A stretch of 25,804 bases of DNA from a virus (lineage: Duplodnaviria; Heunggongvirae; Uroviricota; Caudoviricetes): positions 1-25,804 of IMG/VR virus record IMGVR_UViG_648276650_000007; one strand, 5' to 3'. The translations under genes and the position numbers were made by a program. Of the stretch, positions 1-25,804 are shown in pieces (within the stretch, counting starts at the first letter, position 1; the number at the start of each line of letters is the position of its first letter). A model generated the notes under the pieces. It worked only from the letters and a program-made list of their open reading frames with translations, searched no databases and was not told where the DNA came from.

Positions 1-342
1 GACGAAGTAATTTTCAGGGAATATTTCTATGACACACCACCAGAAGGAAAATACAGATGTGTTGGAGAAGATGGACTGCCTGCATGGGCAGATATTCCTC
101 CACCAACACGTGAAGAACAAATTGCATCAGCCGAAACTAAAAAGCAGCAATTGATTAATCAGGCCAACGATTATATGAACAGTAGACAATGGGTTGGTAA
201 AGCGGCTATTGGTCGTCTGAAAGGTGAGGAACTGGCGCAATATAATTTGTGGCTGGATTATCTGGACGCACTGGAGCTGGTCGATACTTCCGGTGCACCA
301 GATATTGAATGGCCTACGCCTCCGGCAGTTCAGGCCAGATGA
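1..342 (+). CDS. tail fibre assembly protein, alternative copy (partial; 5' end upstream of window)
   Basis: Frame 1 is open from base 1 to the stop at 340-342. Translation ends ...ELAQYNLWLDYLDALELVDTSGAPDIEWPTPP, the same C-terminal signature as the convergent gene at 314..916 (...LNAVLDYIDAVTATDTSTAPDVIWPELP). The ORF track lists only 151..342 because it needs a start codon. Confidence 0.6.
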   Translation, partial: DEVIFREYFYDTPPEGKYRCVGEDGLPAWADIPPPTREEQIASAETKKQQLINQANDYMNSRQWVGKAAIGRLKGEELAQYNLWLDYLDALELVDTSGAPDIEWPTPPAVQAR

Positions 343-916
343 CATCCGGCGCGGTGCTGGTATCTGTTGCCGTCACCGCGTCAATGTAATCCAGCACGGC
401 GTTAAGGCGGGTTGTTTCTGCCTGCGTCAGCTTCCGTCCGGCCTGTAATTTCAGTTGAATCAGACTGATGGAGGCCATTGCAGTATCAATCAGCGACTGG
501 CGCTGTGCTTCTGCTGCATCTACTGCTGCGCCGTGCTGTGCCTCAGTATCGGTCACCCATTTCTCACCATCCCATTTATCGTATGGCGTTAACGGGGCGA
601 TAGTGGTTGTATTTTCAGGGTAATCACCCGGAGTTGTGATTTCTTTGGCTTCTCCCGTTTCGGTGTTATAGACGATTTCACCGCGATGGTCTGGCACATA
701 TTCCCATGAGTTAAAATCTGCAGAACGGCAGATAGCATAACCAGCCTTATATGTGCCTGGTGAATCTAAACAGGAATATGCCGGGATACCAACACCAACG
801 GCAAGATATTCATTTGAAGTGGAAATATATTCCCGTATTTCACCATCATAGTTATAGACGGTAATATTCCCTGCCTTCGTGGCAATAATCTCGCTATTTA
901 ATACAGCGTTATCCAT
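314..916 (-). CDS. G: tail fibre assembly protein (P2 G-like chaperone)
   Basis: 200 aa ORF directly downstream of the tail-fibre gene, start overlapping its stop at 916. C-terminal tail-fibre-assembly signature (LDYIDAV...APDVIWPELP). Position matches P2 gene order H-G. Confidence 0.8.
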   Translation of the reverse strand: MDNAVLNSEIIATKAGNITVYNYDGEIREYISTSNEYLAVGVGIPAYSCLDSPGTYKAGYAICRSADFNSWEYVPDHRGEIVYNTETGEAKEITTPGDYPENTTTIAPLTPYDKWDGEKWVTDTEAQHGAAVDAAEAQRQSLIDTAMASISLIQLKLQAGRKLTQAETTRLNAVLDYIDAVTATDTSTAPDVIWPELPEA

Positions 917-2445
917 TATGCAGCCCTCACAATATAATTAAAGGCAATGTTACGTGGGCGGTTCTCATTTGCGGTTGGGACAACGGCTGAAGCATTAAAA
1001 TTCGCATACAGGGAGCGTTGATACCCGGATGCTGATGCACCACTTAATGCGGGAGCTTTTGACTCCGAAGCCGAAAAGGCCCCTGACACGTATCCTAATA
1101 ACCCTTGTGAATCGCCAATTGAACTGTAGCCAACCACCCCGGTAATGTTTCGGATAGCATCTCCTTGTGCTGAAAGCAGAGTTCGCCCACTATCCACTCC
1201 CTTTCCACCATCCCAGCCACGAATAAACTCACCGCGTAAATCAGGCAATTTTAACGTCGGGTAAGCCTTTGCCAGATTAGGGTAATCTTCAGCAGAAAAA
1301 GCCGCACCGTTGCATTTCAGCCAGCCTGTTGGCGGTGTGGCTGAAGGCCATGGAACAGGCACACCAACAGGCAGCGCAGAGCCTTCCCCTAAACCAAGGT
1401 ATGCGAGAAGACTAGCAACATCCTTTCCACTCAAATGAGTCAGCGTATTGTCCAGCGGTTGTTTACCTGCCAGTGCATTAAGCATTGTCGTGGCAAAGTT
1501 CGGGTCATTCCCCAGCGCCGCCGCCAGTTCGTTCAGTGTATCCAGTGCCGCAGGTGCAGAACCCACCATTGCCGCAATCGCCGATTTCACAAATGCCGTG
1601 GTGGCAATCTGTGTATTGTTGACCGACTGTGCCGCAGTCGGTGCGGTTGGCGTTCCGGTGAGTGCCGGACTCGACAGCGGCGCTTTCAGTGCCAGCGCAT
1701 TGTTAATGGTGGTACTGAATTTCGGATCATTGTTAATGGCTACGGCTATTTCTTTCAGCGTGTCCAGCGTGGCTGGCGCATCATTAATAAGAGCCGTCAG
1801 TGCCGCCTGAACAAATGCGGTGGTCGCAACCTGCGTGGTGTTATTCCCCGTCGCTGGCGTTGGCGCTTTGGGTGTCCCGGTAAACGTAGGACTTTCTTTG
1901 GCTGCATACTGTGAATGCGGGTCCGGTGCGGCAAGATGTTTTGCCATCTGATCATCCGCGTACACCTTCAGCTCCAGTGCCTTGTCATCCACATACTTGC
2001 GGGTTGCCAGCACTACAGCAGGGTCGATTTTCAGGGTGATATTGTCCGTGCTGCTGGTAATCAGCACCATGCGCACGGTCTGGGTACGCCCGCTGCCTTC
2101 AGCCAGTTGCGGCTTATAGCTTTCCGGGCAGTTGCCCACGGCAATCAATGCCCCTGACTCATCAAACAGGCCCACTTCACGTATCCACCAACCGCCCTCG
2201 TTTTCAGGGATCACCTGTTCAGCAATAATCTGGCTGCTGTTCTGTGGGTCGATATAGAGCATATTCAGCGCAGCCCGACGTTTCTCATTTACCAGTGCAC
2301 TCTGCTTTGCGTCCGGCGTCGGCAATGTTCCGCCACCATCGCCCACCGCCATATGGGTAATTTTTAGCGGCACACCGAGCGCGGCGGCGCTGACAAGTTT
2401 CGCCGCGCCAATATCCGTCAGCAGGGTATAAAATTTTGTGCTCAT
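916..2445 (-). CDS. H: tail fibre protein (P2 H-like N-terminus, tail-collar-type C-terminal region)
   Basis: 509 aa. N-terminus MSTKFYTLLTDIGAAKL...MAVGDGGG resembles P2 gpH as I recall it. C-terminal part carries a tail-collar-like motif (PWPSATPPTGWLKCNGAAFSAEDYPNLAKAYP). Follows baseplate gene I with no gap. Confidence 0.9.
   Translation of the reverse strand: MSTKFYTLLTDIGAAKLVSAAALGVPLKITHMAVGDGGGTLPTPDAKQSALVNEKRRAALNMLYIDPQNSSQIIAEQVIPENEGGWWIREVGLFDESGALIAVGNCPESYKPQLAEGSGRTQTVRMVLITSSTDNITLKIDPAVVLATRKYVDDKALELKVYADDQMAKHLAAPDPHSQYAAKESPTFTGTPKAPTPATGNNTTQVATTAFVQAALTALINDAPATLDTLKEIAVAINNDPKFSTTINNALALKAPLSSPALTGTPTAPTAAQSVNNTQIATTAFVKSAIAAMVGSAPAALDTLNELAAALGNDPNFATTMLNALAGKQPLDNTLTHLSGKDVASLLAYLGLGEGSALPVGVPVPWPSATPPTGWLKCNGAAFSAEDYPNLAKAYPTLKLPDLRGEFIRGWDGGKGVDSGRTLLSAQGDAIRNITGVVGYSSIGDSQGLLGYVSGAFSASESKAPALSGASASGYQRSLYANFNASAVVPTANENRPRNIAFNYIVRAA
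1384..1409. other. candidate hix/gix-like DNA-invertase crossover site inside the tail-fibre gene
   Basis: Sequence TTCCCCTAAACCAAGGTATGCGAGAA matches the remembered gix/hix consensus (TTCCTGTAAACC-GA-GGTTTTGGATAA) at about 18 of 24 half-site positions, with the AACC-AA-GG core. It falls at H codons ~346-354 (LLAYLGLGE), at the junction of the P2-like and divergent parts of H. Confidence 0.4.
1456..1887 (-). repeat. internal tandem duplication (~70 codons x2) inside the tail-fibre gene
   Basis: Protein segments PTFTGTPKAPTPATGNNTTQVATTAFVQAALTALINDAPATLDTLKEIAVAINNDPKFSTTINNALALKAP and PALTGTPTAPTAAQSVNNTQIATTAFVKSAIAAMVGSAPAALDTLNELAAALGNDPNFATTMLNALAGKQP are clearly homologous. The antisense ORF 1448..1810 shows the same periodicity. 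Confidence 0.6.
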
Positions 2446-3047
2446 GGATTCACTCTCATTGTGTCAATAACATGGACCGCCCCGCCTTCATGCGCGGTGC
2501 CGCCAGAAATAATTGTTTCGTTGATATACGGATAGATCGTGATTTCTTCGCCAAGATAGCTGGCGGCTCCCACCCAATGCGGGCCGCTGGTCTGCAGATT
2601 GATGGACATGCCGATCATGTGGCGGCTACATGGTTTGGCATCGCTTATCAGTCGCTCAAGTTCCAGATAGGTATCTTCAGTGATGCCCTGGTCCTGCACG
2701 CCGATATCCAGGCGAAACGTGCCCGGAGCCTCTCCGGTTTGCCACCACTCAATAATGCGGATCAGGAATCCGAACGGTTCCACCACCCGCCGCACGGCAC
2801 TGGTGGTTCCTTTATGCTGATGAATATAAAAAGCATCCTTCACTACCTGGCGTTTGACGCTTTCTGTCCAGCCCTCGTCCCAGCGATCCACAGAGAACGC
2901 CCAGGCGAGATAAGGCAGGAAGCTGACCGGACAGGTAGCCGGATTCCACAAGTCACGCAGCGGCACCTGCAGATCAGAAATCCCGCTACAGGTTTGCGCC
3001 AGTCGGCGCTCCAGTGAAGTTGAACCCCGTGGCAGCAGACTATTCAT
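2442..3047 (-). CDS. I: baseplate assembly protein I
   Basis: 201 aa; LPYLAWAFSVDRWDEGW...VVEPFG resembles P2 gpI; synteny J-I-H. Confidence 0.85.
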   Translation of the reverse strand: MNSLLPRGSTSLERRLAQTCSGISDLQVPLRDLWNPATCPVSFLPYLAWAFSVDRWDEGWTESVKRQVVKDAFYIHQHKGTTSAVRRVVEPFGFLIRIIEWWQTGEAPGTFRLDIGVQDQGITEDTYLELERLISDAKPCSRHMIGMSINLQTSGPHWVGAASYLGEEITIYPYINETIISGGTAHEGGAVHVIDTMRVNP

Positions 3048-3948
3048 CCGTTCCTCCGTTGGTTACGCTCCACTGCGTACATGATGCCGCCTGTGTTTTG
3101 TTCAGGACCACATCCGCCAGAGGAGAAGCCAGCTCCACACGCTGCACACCCTCAACATGCAGGGCGGCAAAGATGGCGCTACGGCGAATATCCCGACCAA
3201 GACGCGTCTGACTGGCGATGTACTTCTGCAGGCTGGCTTTTGCCGCTGCCATTACCGGCTCTGCTTCCGGTCCCGGATAGAGAAAAATGGTGGCTTCCAC
3301 GCGATACGGGATGATTTCTGCGCTGCGAACCGTCAGACGGTCAGCCACCGGGCGGACGTTCTCACTGTTCAGAGCTTTTTCCACCACGTCCAGCAGGTCT
3401 TTTTCTGCAGTTCCATCGCCTTCGCGGCTAAGGACAGTCAGCACCACCTCTGCAGGTGCCGGGCTGGTTGCACTGGCATCCGCCACCCTACCGTCGGCGC
3501 TTCGGGCATGAAATTCATAAGCTGCAGTTGGCCCCGCAACAGAAAGCCCTTCAAAGGCTGCAGGCACACGCAGGCGTAACGCTTCATCGCTTTCCATCAC
3601 AGCTGCAACGGGCGGCACAGCATCATTATCAGCAGGCGTCACCGTCAGGCGTGTCACGTTGTAGTTGGCAGCGAGCTGGTCAAGATCGCCGCCCATCGCG
3701 TAAGCCACCATCACCGCCTGTGCGGCTTCGTTAATGCGCTGGCGCAGAAGCAACTCACGGTAAGCGTTCTCCTGCAACAATTTAGTGACGGGTTCAGATT
3801 CCAGTTCCAGCGTGCGGATCACGGCTTCCTGCTCATCTTTCGGATGAAGCGCCACAAATTCTGCCTTGCGTTCGGCAAGCAGCGTCTCAAAGTCCGGCAC
3901 ATCCACAATCTGCGGTGCAGGCAACTGCGAAAGGTCAATCATTGCCAT
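3040..3948 (-). CDS. J: baseplate protein J
   Basis: ORF 3040..3987. Start placed at Met14 (MAMIDLSQLPAPQIV), which aligns with the P2 gpJ N-terminus; ~302 aa. ...GRDIRRSAIFAALHVEGVQRVELASPLADVVL is P2 J-like. Confidence 0.85.
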   Translation of the reverse strand: MAMIDLSQLPAPQIVDVPDFETLLAERKAEFVALHPKDEQEAVIRTLELESEPVTKLLQENAYRELLLRQRINEAAQAVMVAYAMGGDLDQLAANYNVTRLTVTPADNDAVPPVAAVMESDEALRLRVPAAFEGLSVAGPTAAYEFHARSADGRVADASATSPAPAEVVLTVLSREGDGTAEKDLLDVVEKALNSENVRPVADRLTVRSAEIIPYRVEATIFLYPGPEAEPVMAAAKASLQKYIASQTRLGRDIRRSAIFAALHVEGVQRVELASPLADVVLNKTQAASCTQWSVTNGGTDE

Positions 3949-13757: not shown

Positions 13758-14423
13758 TTAAAGATCCGGATCTACAGGCTCATGATATAGATTTACAGGG
13801 TAATGAATAACTTCATAATTCAGTTGAGTAACTGTGTGAACATGCTGGCTATAAAAAACCAATGGATTTTTTTGACAAGGAGTAATCGTTATAGATTTAC
13901 AGGCATGAATTCTTGGTGCGAATTTATCTAAATGCGCCTTCCAGTTGCTCATCATTTCATTACATTTTCTATTACGAGTATAGATAATCAATCCACCACT
14001 TGCGCTGTCTACGGTCCCTGTACTATATCGTTCAGTGAGTTGAGCATACCCTTTAAATAAATAACTATATGAAGATGTATGTTTTTTGGCTTCGCCATGC
14101 CAAATATAATCCTTTAGTTTTATTGTAATATCACAATGTCCGCGCTGATTATTTTCATGAAATGCTTCAATGTCCATATCTTTATTTTTGATATTGGCCA
14201 ATAAAATTAAAGTAAGCTGATCTTCTGTTAAATCGAAGTTTAACTTATTTGAATTCTCTTCTATTTCCTTTACAGCAGAATCAAGTTCAATCCTGACAAA
14301 TTGTTTGAAATTATCGTACGATTGAAGTGCAAATCTAACACGAGTAATAGAAGCATTAATACGCTGAAGAAAAATATCATTATCAATATCAGCCAAACTC
14401 ATTGCTGCAGACATTTTTAACAT
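13758..14423 (-). CDS. hypothetical protein, cargo gene 3 of 3; possible PD-(D/E)xK-type nuclease
   Basis: 221 aa, AT-rich codon usage unlike the flanking phage genes. Start ATG overlaps the stop of gene 2 (TGATG). Contains EAFHE...GHCDITIKLKDYIWHGEAKK, compatible with an E...D...ExK nuclease core; this is inference from motif spacing only. Confidence 0.65.
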   Translation of the reverse strand: MLKMSAAMSLADIDNDIFLQRINASITRVRFALQSYDNFKQFVRIELDSAVKEIEENSNKLNFDLTEDQLTLILLANIKNKDMDIEAFHENNQRGHCDITIKLKDYIWHGEAKKHTSSYSYLFKGYAQLTERYSTGTVDSASGGLIIYTRNRKCNEMMSNWKAHLDKFAPRIHACKSITITPCQKNPLVFYSQHVHTVTQLNYEVIHYPVNLYHEPVDPDL

Positions 14424-14869
14424 CAGATAATATCCTTTGATTTAGATTCATCTAATGTAAAAAAAGGAAATACGAATGACTTATAGTCATACATAAGCTC
14501 CCCTGTAAATGGGTTTGCTAAAGATTGACTGATTTCCGCCTCAATAACTTCCTCTATTTCAAGTTCTACAGGGTCATGAAAATCATCAATGAACCAATAA
14601 TTGAGTTTTAAAAAATCAACCTTTGGGCTACAAAGAATTTGTATGGCCGGATAGATAACCTGCTCATACGTTTCTGGCTGTAAAACCTTATTATAACCAC
14701 CAGCTATATTAAATAAATCCTTATAACTTAAAGCTATATTTGATGATTTTTTAGCCCTTGCCTCGATTTCATCGTACAAATAGCAAGCTAACGCCCCAAT
14801 TTCAGGGCGTTCTGCACACATTTCTTTGATGATCTTGGGCATATCACCATCCTTCATTGCTGACTCCAA
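14423..14869 (-). CDS. hypothetical protein, cargo gene 2 of 3 (small acidic protein)
   Basis: 148 aa; start is directly adjacent to the gene 1 stop; acidic C-terminal half (DDFHDPVELEIEEVIEAEISQ); no motif I recognise. Confidence 0.6.
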   Translation of the reverse strand: MESAMKDGDMPKIIKEMCAERPEIGALACYLYDEIEARAKKSSNIALSYKDLFNIAGGYNKVLQPETYEQVIYPAIQILCSPKVDFLKLNYWFIDDFHDPVELEIEEVIEAEISQSLANPFTGELMYDYKSFVFPFFTLDESKSKDII

Positions 14870-15976
14870 TTATAATATCAGCTTTGTGAGGGTTTCGAAA
14901 TCATCTTTGGATATACATTTACTTAATATAGCATAGTTAACAGGAGAGCAACTACTCCCTCCTAGATGCCTGCGGAGTGTTCCCGGAATGATAAGCTCTA
15001 CGTTATCCGCTAATTGCAGTTTTGGATTATTTCTATCAACTCTAATTCCAATACGATACAAACCAATACTGCCTACTGCTTTGATGCCTTCCTTATTAAA
15101 CAAATCATCACGTAAGTCTTTAGTGGCCACATTTTTCTTTTCTTTATGCGTAGTCCCCTCATTCGTCAAAAATGACAAATCAAAGACTTTATAGCTTAAT
15201 TTTGAATAAGGCAATGAATTTTGTTTGAAAATTGGCTCAATTAACGGATAAAAATCTTTTTCCGATGATTTAAATTCATAACCGACATGATTATACAATT
15301 CACGAATAATGTTACTCTTTGCAAAAGTAACATTATCACCAATAATATTACCATTAGTATCTACCAAAACATGAATTTTATTAGTAACAGAGTCTAATAT
15401 ACAGACATCAAAACATTGTCGCTTTTCTTTTCGCTTTGCAATAATTTCATCAAACTGCTTGTATTGCGCAAGTGCTGACGGGGGAATTTTTTCTCTTACA
15501 ACTAATTCTCTGACAGATGAAAAAACAAGTATTGACTGGGTGTTTTGAATAGAATAATTAACAAGTTCAGGTTGATTTTTTACAGCATTTTGCAATTGGA
15601 CATCATCAAGGATCGAATCAACCAATAATGATGGTTGATTCATCAAATTCCATTGGAAACTAAATCTGTCATTTAGTGTTTTAATTACACTATTATCTAC
15701 AGTCAAACTAAATATTGCTTTTTCACCATAAACGACCTGACCCAAAATTAGGTCATTTACGTTTGCCATAATGCCATCAAACTTTTGCCTATCTTTACTT
15801 TTAAGATCAATGAGGCTTTCTAGTATTTTTTCGTTTGTTGCTTCACGCCCCCTACCTGTTGGCAGCCCTAAAGACGCAATAATTGGCCTTGCAACGTTCC
15901 ATGTGAAACGTTCAGTTAAGGTCAAGATCGACTTTAACTCAGACTCAGAAAGCACTACTGGGACACTACCTGTCAT
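14870..15976 (-). CDS. hypothetical protein, cargo gene 1 of 3
   Basis: ORF 14870..15985 begins with GTG; the in-frame ATG at 15976 (MTGSVPVV...) is preceded by an AGGTG Shine-Dalgarno-like sequence. ~368 aa; no Walker A or other motif recognised by eye. Confidence 0.65.
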   Translation of the reverse strand: MTGSVPVVLSESELKSILTLTERFTWNVARPIIASLGLPTGRGREATNEKILESLIDLKSKDRQKFDGIMANVNDLILGQVVYGEKAIFSLTVDNSVIKTLNDRFSFQWNLMNQPSLLVDSILDDVQLQNAVKNQPELVNYSIQNTQSILVFSSVRELVVREKIPPSALAQYKQFDEIIAKRKEKRQCFDVCILDSVTNKIHVLVDTNGNIIGDNVTFAKSNIIRELYNHVGYEFKSSEKDFYPLIEPIFKQNSLPYSKLSYKVFDLSFLTNEGTTHKEKKNVATKDLRDDLFNKEGIKAVGSIGLYRIGIRVDRNNPKLQLADNVELIIPGTLRRHLGGSSCSPVNYAILSKCISKDDFETLTKLIL

Positions 15977-16125
15977 AACTTGCACCTAGTCATCCAAAAA
16001 GCAATAAGAATTTGCTCTTGTCTTAATTTATCCTTCGATACCTAACAAATTACCTCAATGTTGAAAAAATTTGCAAGCCATTTGCTTCTAAAAAGCGACC
16101 TTACTCAGAGTGTTACAAAACTAAG

Positions 16126-16154: not shown

Positions 16155-16634
16155 TGCCCGCTTTATGTAGTAGTTTTCATGCACCTGCATGACATGAGCA
16201 AAAGCCCGCCAGTTCTGGCATGTCTTAGCCAAACCGATCCTCAAACGATCATGCGAACTCATGCAGCATAGACATGCATGACATGAAAATCGGTCAAACC
16301 TTGAAACCAGTCATAAATATGAGCCAGCTTAATACACACTAAATAGCTGCGTCTAATACTGCTACACCTGCCGTTTACTGACATGTGGCATGTCGCGTAA
16401 GGACAACATACTGTAGGCCAGATACAGCAGGATCAGGCGAAGAAAACGGCCCCACGCCTTACCCAGCAAGAGCCAAGGGCCAAGGGCTAACCGAAAGTGG
16501 AACATTATTCCGCGCAGTTATTTAGTGTCAGCTCTTTTGAGCTAAAATCAAGTTTCAACATGAGGGTCTGTGCAGGCTTTCTCATCCCGCTAATTTATAC
16601 AGCACACCTATATGGCTATGAGTTTGTCATGCCC

Positions 16635-16667
16635 GCTAATCCTGTTAGGATTAGCCTTGTTTTTTTA
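16635..16667 (+). terminator. intrinsic-terminator-like hairpin 17 nt upstream of the lipoprotein start
   Basis: 8-bp stem GCTAATCC / GGATTAGC, loop TGTTA, followed by CTTGTTTTTTT. Confidence 0.5.
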
Positions 16668-16683
16668 CGATTGGGATAGGGAT

Positions 16684-17490
16684 ATGAAGAAATTAACTGG
16701 CGTAATTGCTTTTGCTCTGCTGCTTACTGCTTGTGACAAACCGAAGATCGATGCATCAAGCGATCAGTCGATGAAAGAGTCCATTCAAAAAGTAAGAGAG
16801 TCCTTACCTGCAGATAAAAAAGCTCAGTTTGATGATGCAGTTAAAGTCGTTGCCTTTAGCCAAATCAACATGAGAGAGCTAATGCAGGCTGGAACGTCTT
16901 CTGGGGACGTCTACGAAACAAAAATTAAGTCAGCGTTGGAAGGTAAAACTGGTGATGAGGTTATAAATTACGCACAAACTATTCGCCTTGAGCGTGAGAA
17001 GAGAGAGAAAGAACAGGCTCTGCAAGAAATAAAAGAACTGGAAGCCAAACAAACCTCTGCAACACAGGCTGCGGAAAAAATGAAAGCCTTCAAGGTCGAA
17101 CGTTCCCGTTTTTATTTCCAGAAAGAGGATTACGGCAATGATCAGCCAATTCTGGATATTAGCGTTGAAAACGGAACAGACAAAGCGGTTGCCAGAGTAT
17201 TCTTCAAAGGAGTTATTGCCAGCCCAGGAAGAAGCGTCCCTTGGTTCTCTGACGTCTTCAACTATAAAATTTCTGGAGGTCTGGAACCAGGTGAGAAAGC
17301 CAACTGGAAATTAGCCCCTAATAGATACTCTGATTGGGGAAAACTTAAAGTTCCGGCTGATGCTATATTTACCGTCACAGTCATTGGCCTTGAAGACGCA
17401 GATGGGAAATCGATCTATGGTGACGCCGAGTTTTCAGAACGCGATGCTGACAGACTGAATCAACTTAGAGATAAGTACCTTTCTAAATAA
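16684..17490 (+). CDS. hypothetical lipoprotein
   Basis: ORF 16612..17490; start placed at Met25 (MKKLTGVIAFALLLTACDKPK) because of the signal peptide with lipobox LLTAC and the hairpin covering the upstream part; ~268 aa mature protein with a Lys/Glu-rich coiled-coil-like middle. Confidence 0.7.
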   Translation: MKKLTGVIAFALLLTACDKPKIDASSDQSMKESIQKVRESLPADKKAQFDDAVKVVAFSQINMRELMQAGTSSGDVYETKIKSALEGKTGDEVINYAQTIRLEREKREKEQALQEIKELEAKQTSATQAAEKMKAFKVERSRFYFQKEDYGNDQPILDISVENGTDKAVARVFFKGVIASPGRSVPWFSDVFNYKISGGLEPGEKANWKLAPNRYSDWGKLKVPADAIFTVTVIGLEDADGKSIYGDAEFSERDADRLNQLRDKYLSK

Positions 17491-24371: not shown

Positions 24372-24563
24372 ATGCTTGGTAAGGTATTTTTTGTGGTTTT
24401 GTCATGTTCTTTGTTATTAAACCCACTAACTACCTATGCTAGAAATTATCCCTGCTCAGGGAAAAAGGGAGGTGTTTCTCACTGTACCTCAGATGGCAAA
24501 TTCGTTTGCAATGATGGAACTATTAGTAAATCCAAAAAAATCTGTACTAAAAACTCACGATAA
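24372..24563 (+). CDS. small secreted cysteine-rich protein
   Basis: 63 aa; strong GGGAGG Shine-Dalgarno; N-terminal signal peptide ([19 protein letters not shown]), then Lys/Gly-rich mature part with 4 Cys; AT-rich. Confidence 0.5.
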
Positions 24564-24751
24564 CTTTTGCTTTTATATCTGCGTCTAAAATAAAAATGAG
24601 CCGCAGGTTAACCGCAAAAGTTACATGCTCACATAGCAAAAAGAATAGCCAACTTCATGATGGCTTCAGTGAGATGTATGGTCGTAGGATTTCATACATT
24701 GACACTGGTTATACATACAGTAAAAATGCTCTCTACTGGAGGGCATTTTTT

Positions 24752-25804
24752 ATGGCAGTACGAAAACTCACCACAGGGAAATGGCTTTGCGAATGTTACC
24801 CCGCCGGACGTAGTGGACGTCGTGTGCGTAAACAATTCGCCACCAAAGGCGAAGCTCTGGCTTTTGAGCGCAACACGATGGAAGAAACCGAAGCAAAGCC
24901 CTGGCTGGGTGAATCAGTGGATCGTCGAACACTGAAAGACGTAGTTGAGCTATGGTTCAAACTACATGGTAAATCTCTGACAGCTGGGCAGCATGTCTAT
25001 GACAAATTGCTGTTGATGGTTGACGCTCTGGGTAATCCTCTTGCAACCGATCTCACCTCTAAAATGTTTGCCCACTATCGAGATAAACGCCTGACAGGCG
25101 AGATCTACTTCAGCGAGAAATGGAAGAAAGGAGCAAGCCCGGTCACCATTAACCTGGAGCAAAGCTATCTAAGTAGTGTTTTTAGCGAACTATCCCGTCT
25201 GGGCGAGTGGTCGTATCCGAACCCACTGGAGAACATGCGAAAATTCACCATCGCAGAAAAAGAGATGGCATGGCTTACCCATGAGCAGATTGTTGAATTG
25301 CTGGCTGATTGCAAACGTCAGGACCCAATTCTGGCACTGGTAGTTAAGATATGCTTAAGCACAGGCGCACGCTGGCGTGAAGCCGTAAATCTTACCCGCT
25401 CACAGGTGACCAAATACCGAATTACCTTTGTCAGAACGAAGGGGAAGAAAAACAGAAGCATCCCTATCAGTAAAGAGCTTTACGAAGAGATCATGGCGCT
25501 TGATGGGTTCAATTTCTTTACAGACTACTATTTTCAATTTTTATCCGTGATGGAAAAAACGTCTATCGTGCTCCCTCGCGGTCAACTCACACACGTTCTG
25601 CGCCATACGTTTGCGGCGCACTTCATGATGTCGGGTGGAAACATTCTCGCCTTACAAAAAATTCTCGGACACCACGATATAAAAATGACTATGCGTTACG
25701 CACATCTGGCACCAGATCATCTGGAAACGGCGCTCCGTTTCAATCCTCTGGCAACGCTGCCAAGTGGCGACAAAGTGGCGGCAGCGGTTGGCATTACCCC
25801 GTAA
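24752..25804 (+). CDS. int: tyrosine integrase (P2/186 family)
   Basis: ORF 24596..25804; start placed at Met53 (MAVRKLTTGKWLCECYPAGRSGRRVRKQF), preceded by GGAGGG; ~350 aa. C-terminal catalytic residues present (VLRHTFAAHF...HHDIKMTMRYAHL). Confidence 0.9.
   Translation: MAVRKLTTGKWLCECYPAGRSGRRVRKQFATKGEALAFERNTMEETEAKPWLGESVDRRTLKDVVELWFKLHGKSLTAGQHVYDKLLLMVDALGNPLATDLTSKMFAHYRDKRLTGEIYFSEKWKKGASPVTINLEQSYLSSVFSELSRLGEWSYPNPLENMRKFTIAEKEMAWLTHEQIVELLADCKRQDPILALVVKICLSTGARWREAVNLTRSQVTKYRITFVRTKGKKNRSIPISKELYEEIMALDGFNFFTDYYFQFLSVMEKTSIVLPRGQLTHVLRHTFAAHFMMSGGNILALQKILGHHDIKMTMRYAHLAPDHLETALRFNPLATLPSGDKVAAAVGITP

Follow-up and report, generated by a model that had tools for sequence, protein, structure and literature searches.

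Convergent tail-fiber assembly genes at the left end of the window

At the left end of the window, which is the whole 25,804-nucleotide stretch of DNA that was analyzed, a plus-strand reading frame open from base 1 converges with the minus-strand gene G, and the tail-fiber gene H lies directly upstream of G. The features of this locus are given below, in window positions except for the last one.

1..342, plus strand: tfa' (TfaP-like), second tail-fiber assembly gene, 3' three-quarters (open frame with a Caudo_TAP match)
314..342, no strand: overlap of the 3' ends of G and tfa', 29 nt (ORF coordinates)
314..916, minus strand: G, TfaE-like tail-fiber assembly protein, 200 aa, ATG start (ORF list and Caudo_TAP match)
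916..2445, minus strand: H, tail fiber, 509 aa (ORF list)
916..1396, minus strand: variable C-terminal exon of H, ~160 codons, the one now attached to the constant part (Collar, PF07484, at residues 361-408; inside the inverted block of relatives)
1397..2445, minus strand: constant N-terminal part of H, ~349 codons (Phage_tail_fib, PF12571, at residues 1-150; co-linear in native and flipped relatives)
1384..1409, no strand: right crossover site, 26 bp, TTCCCCTAAACC-AA-GGTATGCGAGAA, with its central AA at 1396-1397, inside H
1..1396, no strand: in-window part of the invertible segment, its right-hand three-quarters (limits from both sites in L002)
11553..11578 of L002 (strain 2021CK-01361), no strand: left crossover site, 26 bp, TTTTCTTAAACG-TT-GGTTTGGGAGAA, 56 bp upstream of the invertase start codon

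Translation of the plus-strand frame from base 1 gave 113 codons without a stop and a TGA at 340..342. The original prediction had taken this frame and G for two convergent tail-fiber assembly genes with a common C-terminal signature and 3' ends overlapping by 29 nt, and each of these points was confirmed. G matched Pfam profile PF02413 (Caudo_TAP) with 113.1 bits (E 1.4e-32) and the 1..342 fragment with 106.3 bits (E 1.7e-30), both far above the curated cut-off of 22.1 bits. Given that the fragment covers profile positions 35-130 of 131, it represents a gene cut off by the edge of the window, rather than a short ORF that arose by chance. The similarity between G and tfa' is confined to the last ~70 residues (39% identity), which end in LDYIDAVTATDTSTAPDVIWPELPEA and LDYLDALELVDTSGAPDIEWPTPPAVQAR, respectively, and the two frames share positions 314..342. 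The same 29-nt overlap recurs in related loci (L003-L005). On its other side, G is joined to H by an ATGA overlap.

The N-terminal domain of H (Phage_tail_fib, PF12571) is of the P2 H type, and the only start codon for either form of the fiber described below lies in the constant part of H. Either form is probably transcribed from the late promoter. Scans of the invertible segment for promoters (6 sites vs. 4.6 expected) and for terminators (5 vs. 3.9 expected) returned numbers at the level of chance.

The carrier prophage and its matching genomes

The carrier of the window is a P2-like prophage of Escherichia coli, and the left edge of the window falls inside the invertible segment. Three complete E. 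coli chromosomes match positions 1-2500 of the window with 100% identity, namely those of ECONIH4 (L001), 2021CK-01361 (L002) and CAVP776 (L009); over the 14.5 kb compared, ECONIH4 differs from the window at two positions and 2021CK-01361 at one. What is said below of the left part of the cassette is known from these genomes identical to window 1-2500, and it concerns DNA outside the window itself. According to the RefSeq annotation of the matching genomes, the prophage is a complete P2-like one inserted between ybjL and rcdA, with the order ogr-D-U-T-E-FII-FI, invertase, exon, tfa', G, H, I-J-W-V, followed by capsid and terminase genes, A, and cI-int. The late region of the identical prophage is thus that of a P2-like phage (Peduoviridae), with the order V-W-J-I-H-G ... 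FI-FII-E-T-U-D-ogr and with P2-type capsid, terminase and portal genes. The cassette occupies the Z/fun position, flanked by the tail-fiber genes H and G and by the tail sheath gene FI. Comparison with the RefSeq annotation places the ends of the window in the middle of tfa' and at the int stop codon, whose end is the last base of the window. The window keeps the P2 late and early genes in full as far as int, and the carrier appears from its gene content to be intact.

Several other features of the prophage were noted. The mechanically called plus-strand ORF at 24596..25804 (402 aa) corresponds to the integrase, lengthened in frame at its upstream end; the RefSeq integrase has 350 aa. Between the portal gene Q and the replication gene A, three minus-strand genes at 13758..15985 encode hypothetical proteins of 221, 148 and 371 aa at the location of the P2 old/tin accessory hotspot. 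PADLOC found no match for these three genes and Pfam none above cut-off; they may form an uncharacterised defence or accessory module. The same two scans yielded nothing useful on accessory genes elsewhere in the window. A plus-strand gene for a DUF6694 lipoprotein (16612..17490; 292 aa) is uninterrupted in the window and split by IS1 in ECONIH4 and CAVP776, where the blastn blocks at the IS1 point overlap by 8 nt (16774..16781), as expected of a target-site duplication. The window thus comes from a relative without this IS1. Finally, a plus-strand ORF of 63 aa between cI and int (24372..24563) has a signal-peptide-like N-terminus and several cysteines; it had no Pfam match and is annotated as hypothetical in ECONIH4.

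An invertase, an alternative fiber exon and two crossover sites

The original prediction had placed the rest of the second assembly gene, a partner tail-fiber C-terminal exon and an invertase of the Gin/Cin/Pin family to the left of the window, and all three are found there in L001, L002 and L009. In these genomes, tfa' is complete with 147 aa and covers Caudo_TAP profile positions 8-130 of 131; the 34 codons missing from the window lie to its left. Just upstream of tfa' is an alternative fiber C-terminal exon of ~110 codons (Gp53-like_C), the stop codon of which overlaps the tfa' ATG. Each of the two variable exons thus has an assembly gene of its own behind it, and these exon-gene sets converge. 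In ECONIH4, a run of 4 G instead of 5 G at L001 11784 shifts the frame of the alternative exon and would truncate the flipped fiber. The run was intact in eight of the nine independent records checked, with ECONIH4 as the sole exception, and its 4-G run is a mutation private to this strain or else a sequencing error in a homopolymer.

The third element is a divergent gene for a serine invertase of 188 aa. It starts with MLIGYVRVSTNDQ, which contains Ser9, carries Resolvase and HTH_7 domains, and matched the sequence of the Gin crystal structure 3UJ3 with E 1e-92; its identity is 79% to P1 Cin and 86.7% to e14 PinE. It agrees in every respect with what is expected of this family, that is, a small protein (~185-195 aa) with a catalytic serine at position 9 or 10 and a C-terminal HTH, encoded next to the segment.

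The two crossover sites were first spotted by eye and then confirmed through comparative breakpoints. The right site encodes the conserved LGLGE joint of H and corresponds to 13384..13409 of L002. It was the sole match in the window to YYNAAACCWWGGT, a half-site-plus-core pattern for which 0.06 matches were expected. The two sites are imperfect palindromes with a matching core, which on the plus strand is TT in the left site and AA in the right one, so that they are in inverted orientation. Both align with the annotated P1 cixL and Mu gix sites. Of the 26 positions of the left site, 25 are shared with the pinE-proximal site of e14, and the left site also contains the e14 repeat TTGGTTTGGGAGAAG, as quoted in PMC12529663. 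It should be noted that a generic inverted-repeat search of the locus missed the crossover sites, and that the left site had no match in the window when up to 3 mismatches were allowed, both because the arms agree at only 19 of 26 positions.

With these sites, the invertible segment measures ~1.83 kb. About 435 bp of it, comprising the start of tfa', the alternative exon and the left site, lie to the left of base 1, and the invertase lies beyond the window as well. The right end of the segment is at 1396/1397, inside H. The original prediction of an invertible segment is thus upheld, and the second crossover site has been found, while the extent proposed for it (1-916) was too small: the segment is larger and its right boundary is the crossover site in H at 1384..1409. 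As the window begins in the middle of the cassette, H can end in either of two C-termini, and the frame at 1..342 is part of a genuine gene, not noise.

A candidate enhancer was noticed in the 5' part of the invertase gene. Nucleotides 19-90 have 78% identity to the annotated enhancer of P1 cin, a similarity that could also be due to constraint on the coding sequence. In all three pairwise comparisons, the first 90 nt were the most or second most conserved 90-nt window of the invertase gene, again possibly as a result of coding constraint, and they contained more identical synonymous codons. One Fis-like motif, at nt 71, is in the same position in all three invertase genes compared. By analogy, inversion would depend on Fis bound at this candidate enhancer.

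Both orientations of the segment in relatives

Inversion of the L002 segment in silico between the two cores fused H in frame to the alternative exon, which gave an uninterrupted fiber of 460 aa (H'). This protein reads DVASLLAYLGLGE up to the joint and AAKRNVGTGENQ from it, and ends in FAKGW; the ATG of tfa' follows directly in the in silico product. Eleven complete E. coli genomes covered the predicted flipped junction between the alternative exon and the constant part of H over its whole length, with identities of up to 98.5%. The other predicted junction, between the invertase side and the H tip of the window, was covered in three genomes at up to 97% identity. A flipped twin at 99% identity or more was not found among the complete genomes, 98.5% being the best.

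The relatives MS10860 (L003) and TO6 (L004) have a mirror-image gene order in their annotation. When L003 and L004 were compared with the native locus by blastn, they aligned as plus/minus/plus blocks at 1..1579, 1562..3400 and 3383 onward (coordinates are those of L002 minus 10000), and the block borders meet within the two 26-bp sites. Both orientations with breakpoints at the sites are hence found among the relatives, as expected of an invertible segment, and the 460-aa H' is annotated or called in L003 and L013/L014.

Searching for the exact G protein led to the assembly of the last-named loci, GCA_000408565.1 (KE137155.1). Its identity to the locus of the window is 99.9-100%, and it contains the segment twice in tandem, once per orientation. 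It has four sites, of which the two recombinant ones are exactly as expected of an exchange at the central dinucleotide, and the predicted 46-nt flipped junction occurs verbatim in it beside both native junctions. The copies are connected by no more than ~10 and ~20 nt of flanking sequence, free of any run of N (e.g., L014 1621..5364). The tandem probably consists of two co-existing alleles that were mis-joined by the assembler, which would imply a mixed culture; a real duplication is possible.

Comparison with known invertible fiber loci

The cassette is of a kind already known. The original prediction had likened it to the G segment of Mu and the C segment of P1, and that comparison stands for the class of mechanism and the general layout. 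The closest known system is a different one, however: judged by its sequences, it is the Pin/P segment of e14 in E. coli K-12, with Mu and P1 as mechanistic analogues. The P segment has the same gene order (stfP-tfaP-tfaE-stfE-pinE) and a length of 1797 bp (PMC12529663), compared to ~1830 bp here. e14 TfaE is 90% identical to G over 200 aa, TfaP is 61% identical to tfa' with the C-terminal 30 residues the same or near-identical, and the C-terminal exon of StfE is 56% identical to the H tip. The tfaP/tfaE overlap is 29 nt, as is that of G and tfa'. The two systems differ in their carriers, as e14 is a defective lambdoid remnant and the carrier here an apparently complete P2-like prophage (Peduoviridae) with the fiber gene H, and in the constant part, which is StfP in e14 and a P2 H (Phage_tail_fib) here. 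The alternative tip (Gp53-like_C) had no BLASTP match to the tip of e14 StfP at E 1e-3. It was reported previously that PinQ drives inversion of the e14 P segment, which yields StfE2, a protein that blocks adsorption of other phages (PMC12529663).

Inversion in P2-like prophages has also been published. Reads and PCR demonstrated that the fiber loci of e14 and of P2-like prophages of EPEC invert (Goldberg et al., 2014, PMC4272514), the Fels-2 prophage of Salmonella has an invertible tail-fiber locus with fin (PMC7953296; PMC12529663), and invertases with inverted neighbors are found in the P2 Z/fun hotspot (bioRxiv 10.1101/2024.10.15.618418). The invertible loci of EPEC E2348/69, Fels-2 and Escherichia phage 500465-1 have the same position on the P2 map and the same layout as the locus of this study, and the tips vary between P2-like phages with such loci. 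One locus of EPEC E2348/69 is a three-site shufflon, in contrast to the two sites and two states here. Phage 500465-1 (NC_049342), which is classified in Peduoviridae, is the closest named phage; its invertase is 99.5% identical and it has two convergent assembly genes.

Mu (G segment/Gin) and P1 (C segment/Cin) share with the cassette the logic of a constant fiber N-terminus and two variable exons, each with its own chaperone, arranged tail to tail. Gin and Cin have ~75-79% identity to the invertase of this study, and the 26-bp sites align. In both Mu and the present locus, the invertase is outside the segment and a site lies upstream of the invertase. Mu S, U and U' were considered as homologues of H, G and tfa' and rejected, as only a short C-terminal motif of the chaperones matches. 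Unlike the situation here, the core dinucleotide of Mu is GA/TC instead of AA/TT, and its U and U' genes do not overlap. In P1, in contrast to the present locus, cin reads toward the segment and cixL overlaps the 3' end of cin. The Mu and P1 segments, with ~3 kb and ~4.2 kb, respectively, are both longer than the segment described here.

One chromosome, GCA_013795065.1 (CP056865.1), encodes the exact 200-aa G, the 147-aa tfa' and an invertase of 182-184 aa twice (L017 and L018), and these cassettes adjoin baseplate genes of the Mu type (Mu Gp45, GP46 and Gp48). The cassette is thus common to Mu-like, P2-like and lambdoid (e14) prophages.

Proposed mechanism and alternative explanations

Taken together, positions 1..1396 of the window are very probably the right-hand part of a Pin-type invertible tail-fiber cassette, similar to the e14 P segment, on an apparently intact P2-like prophage of E. 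coli. What is established of this cassette is its anatomy, the family of its invertase, its two sites, the fusion in frame, and the fact that both orientations exist in nature, with breakpoints exactly at the sites. The invertase would pair the two 26-bp sites in inverted orientation and cut them at the central AA/TT dinucleotide, such that the ~1.83-kb segment rotates. As judged from Gin, Cin, Hin and Pin, Ser9 would carry out the cleavage with a 2-bp stagger, followed by subunit rotation. In the orientation of the window, the constant 349 codons of H continue into the Collar-domain tip, after which comes G, which would serve as the chaperone for this tip. In the flipped orientation, the constant part of H would be in frame with the Gp53-like tip, followed by tfa' as the chaperone for that alternative tip. 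Virions of the two states would bear different receptor-binding tips and so would infect different hosts. The sequences suggest that inversion is active in the source strain, and analogy with the known systems suggests that it changes the host range.

An alternative is that the segment was once invertible and is now frozen, its invertase or left site lost or inactive and the plus-strand gene silent cargo. This is a real possibility in general. Three loci at the same ybjL insertion site (L011, L012 and L019) have a second assembly gene cut to 55 aa and the invertase deleted, and the alternative exon of ECONIH4 is frameshifted. The original prediction had regarded the plus-strand frame as a dead remnant if the upstream sequence had neither an invertase nor a second crossover site; both are present in the three matching genomes. 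Dead remnants do occur in other strains (L011, L012 and L019), in a pattern that does not fit the window. The window keeps 342 nt of tfa', compared to 168 nt in the remnants, and the full P2 late and early genes up to int; in every record that matches at 100%, the invertase is intact and the two sites and the whole of tfa' are present, and the 5-G run of the alternative exon is intact in all but one of the independent records. We therefore consider a frozen segment very unlikely. As to the three loci themselves, they are heavily deleted versions of the same prophage in which the terminase gene abuts a fragment of gene I; they lack the sheath genes and the invertase, and what they retain of the switch is truly a dead remnant.

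The late operon of P2 is repressed in the lysogen, and H belongs to such an operon, which is intact in the carrier. Thus, and because e14 is a defective element, unlike the prophage of the window, and the promoter signal in the segment is not above chance, it is very improbable that the cassette serves the lysogen by a flip that yields a prophage-expressed, fiber-derived protein blocking the adsorption of other phages, like StfE2, a role that was reported for the closely related e14 P segment together with action of invertases of this family in trans on the sites of other prophages (PMC12529663). In favor of such a role, ECONIH4 has five places similar to window 1-2500; it is unlikely all the same for a gene expressed late in an intact prophage of the P2 type.

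The cassette is accordingly best read as an invertible switch of the tail-fiber tip. In ECONIH4, five separate places are similar to window 1-2500, which indicates that several fiber and invertase cassettes co-reside in this chromosome, the setting needed for cross-talk between invertases. It is conceivable, albeit rather doubtful, that the invertase of this cassette also acts in trans on other Pin-type segments of the chromosome (e14-like, Mu-like or other P2-like), and theirs reciprocally on its own. If so, several prophages would have their tips switched in a common network, with a possible effect on the sensitivity of the lysogen to other phages, comparable to that of PinQ on e14 that yields StfE2.

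Implications

The main value of these results lies in the annotation of the start of the window and of H. Assemblies of strains with such cassettes can contain a break, a duplication or a wrong join here, as GCA_000408565.1 exemplifies. Biologically, the locus opens no new question; it is one more case of a well-described host-range switch, and, as it shows, the e14 P-segment cassette travels between lambdoid, Mu-like and P2-like prophages.
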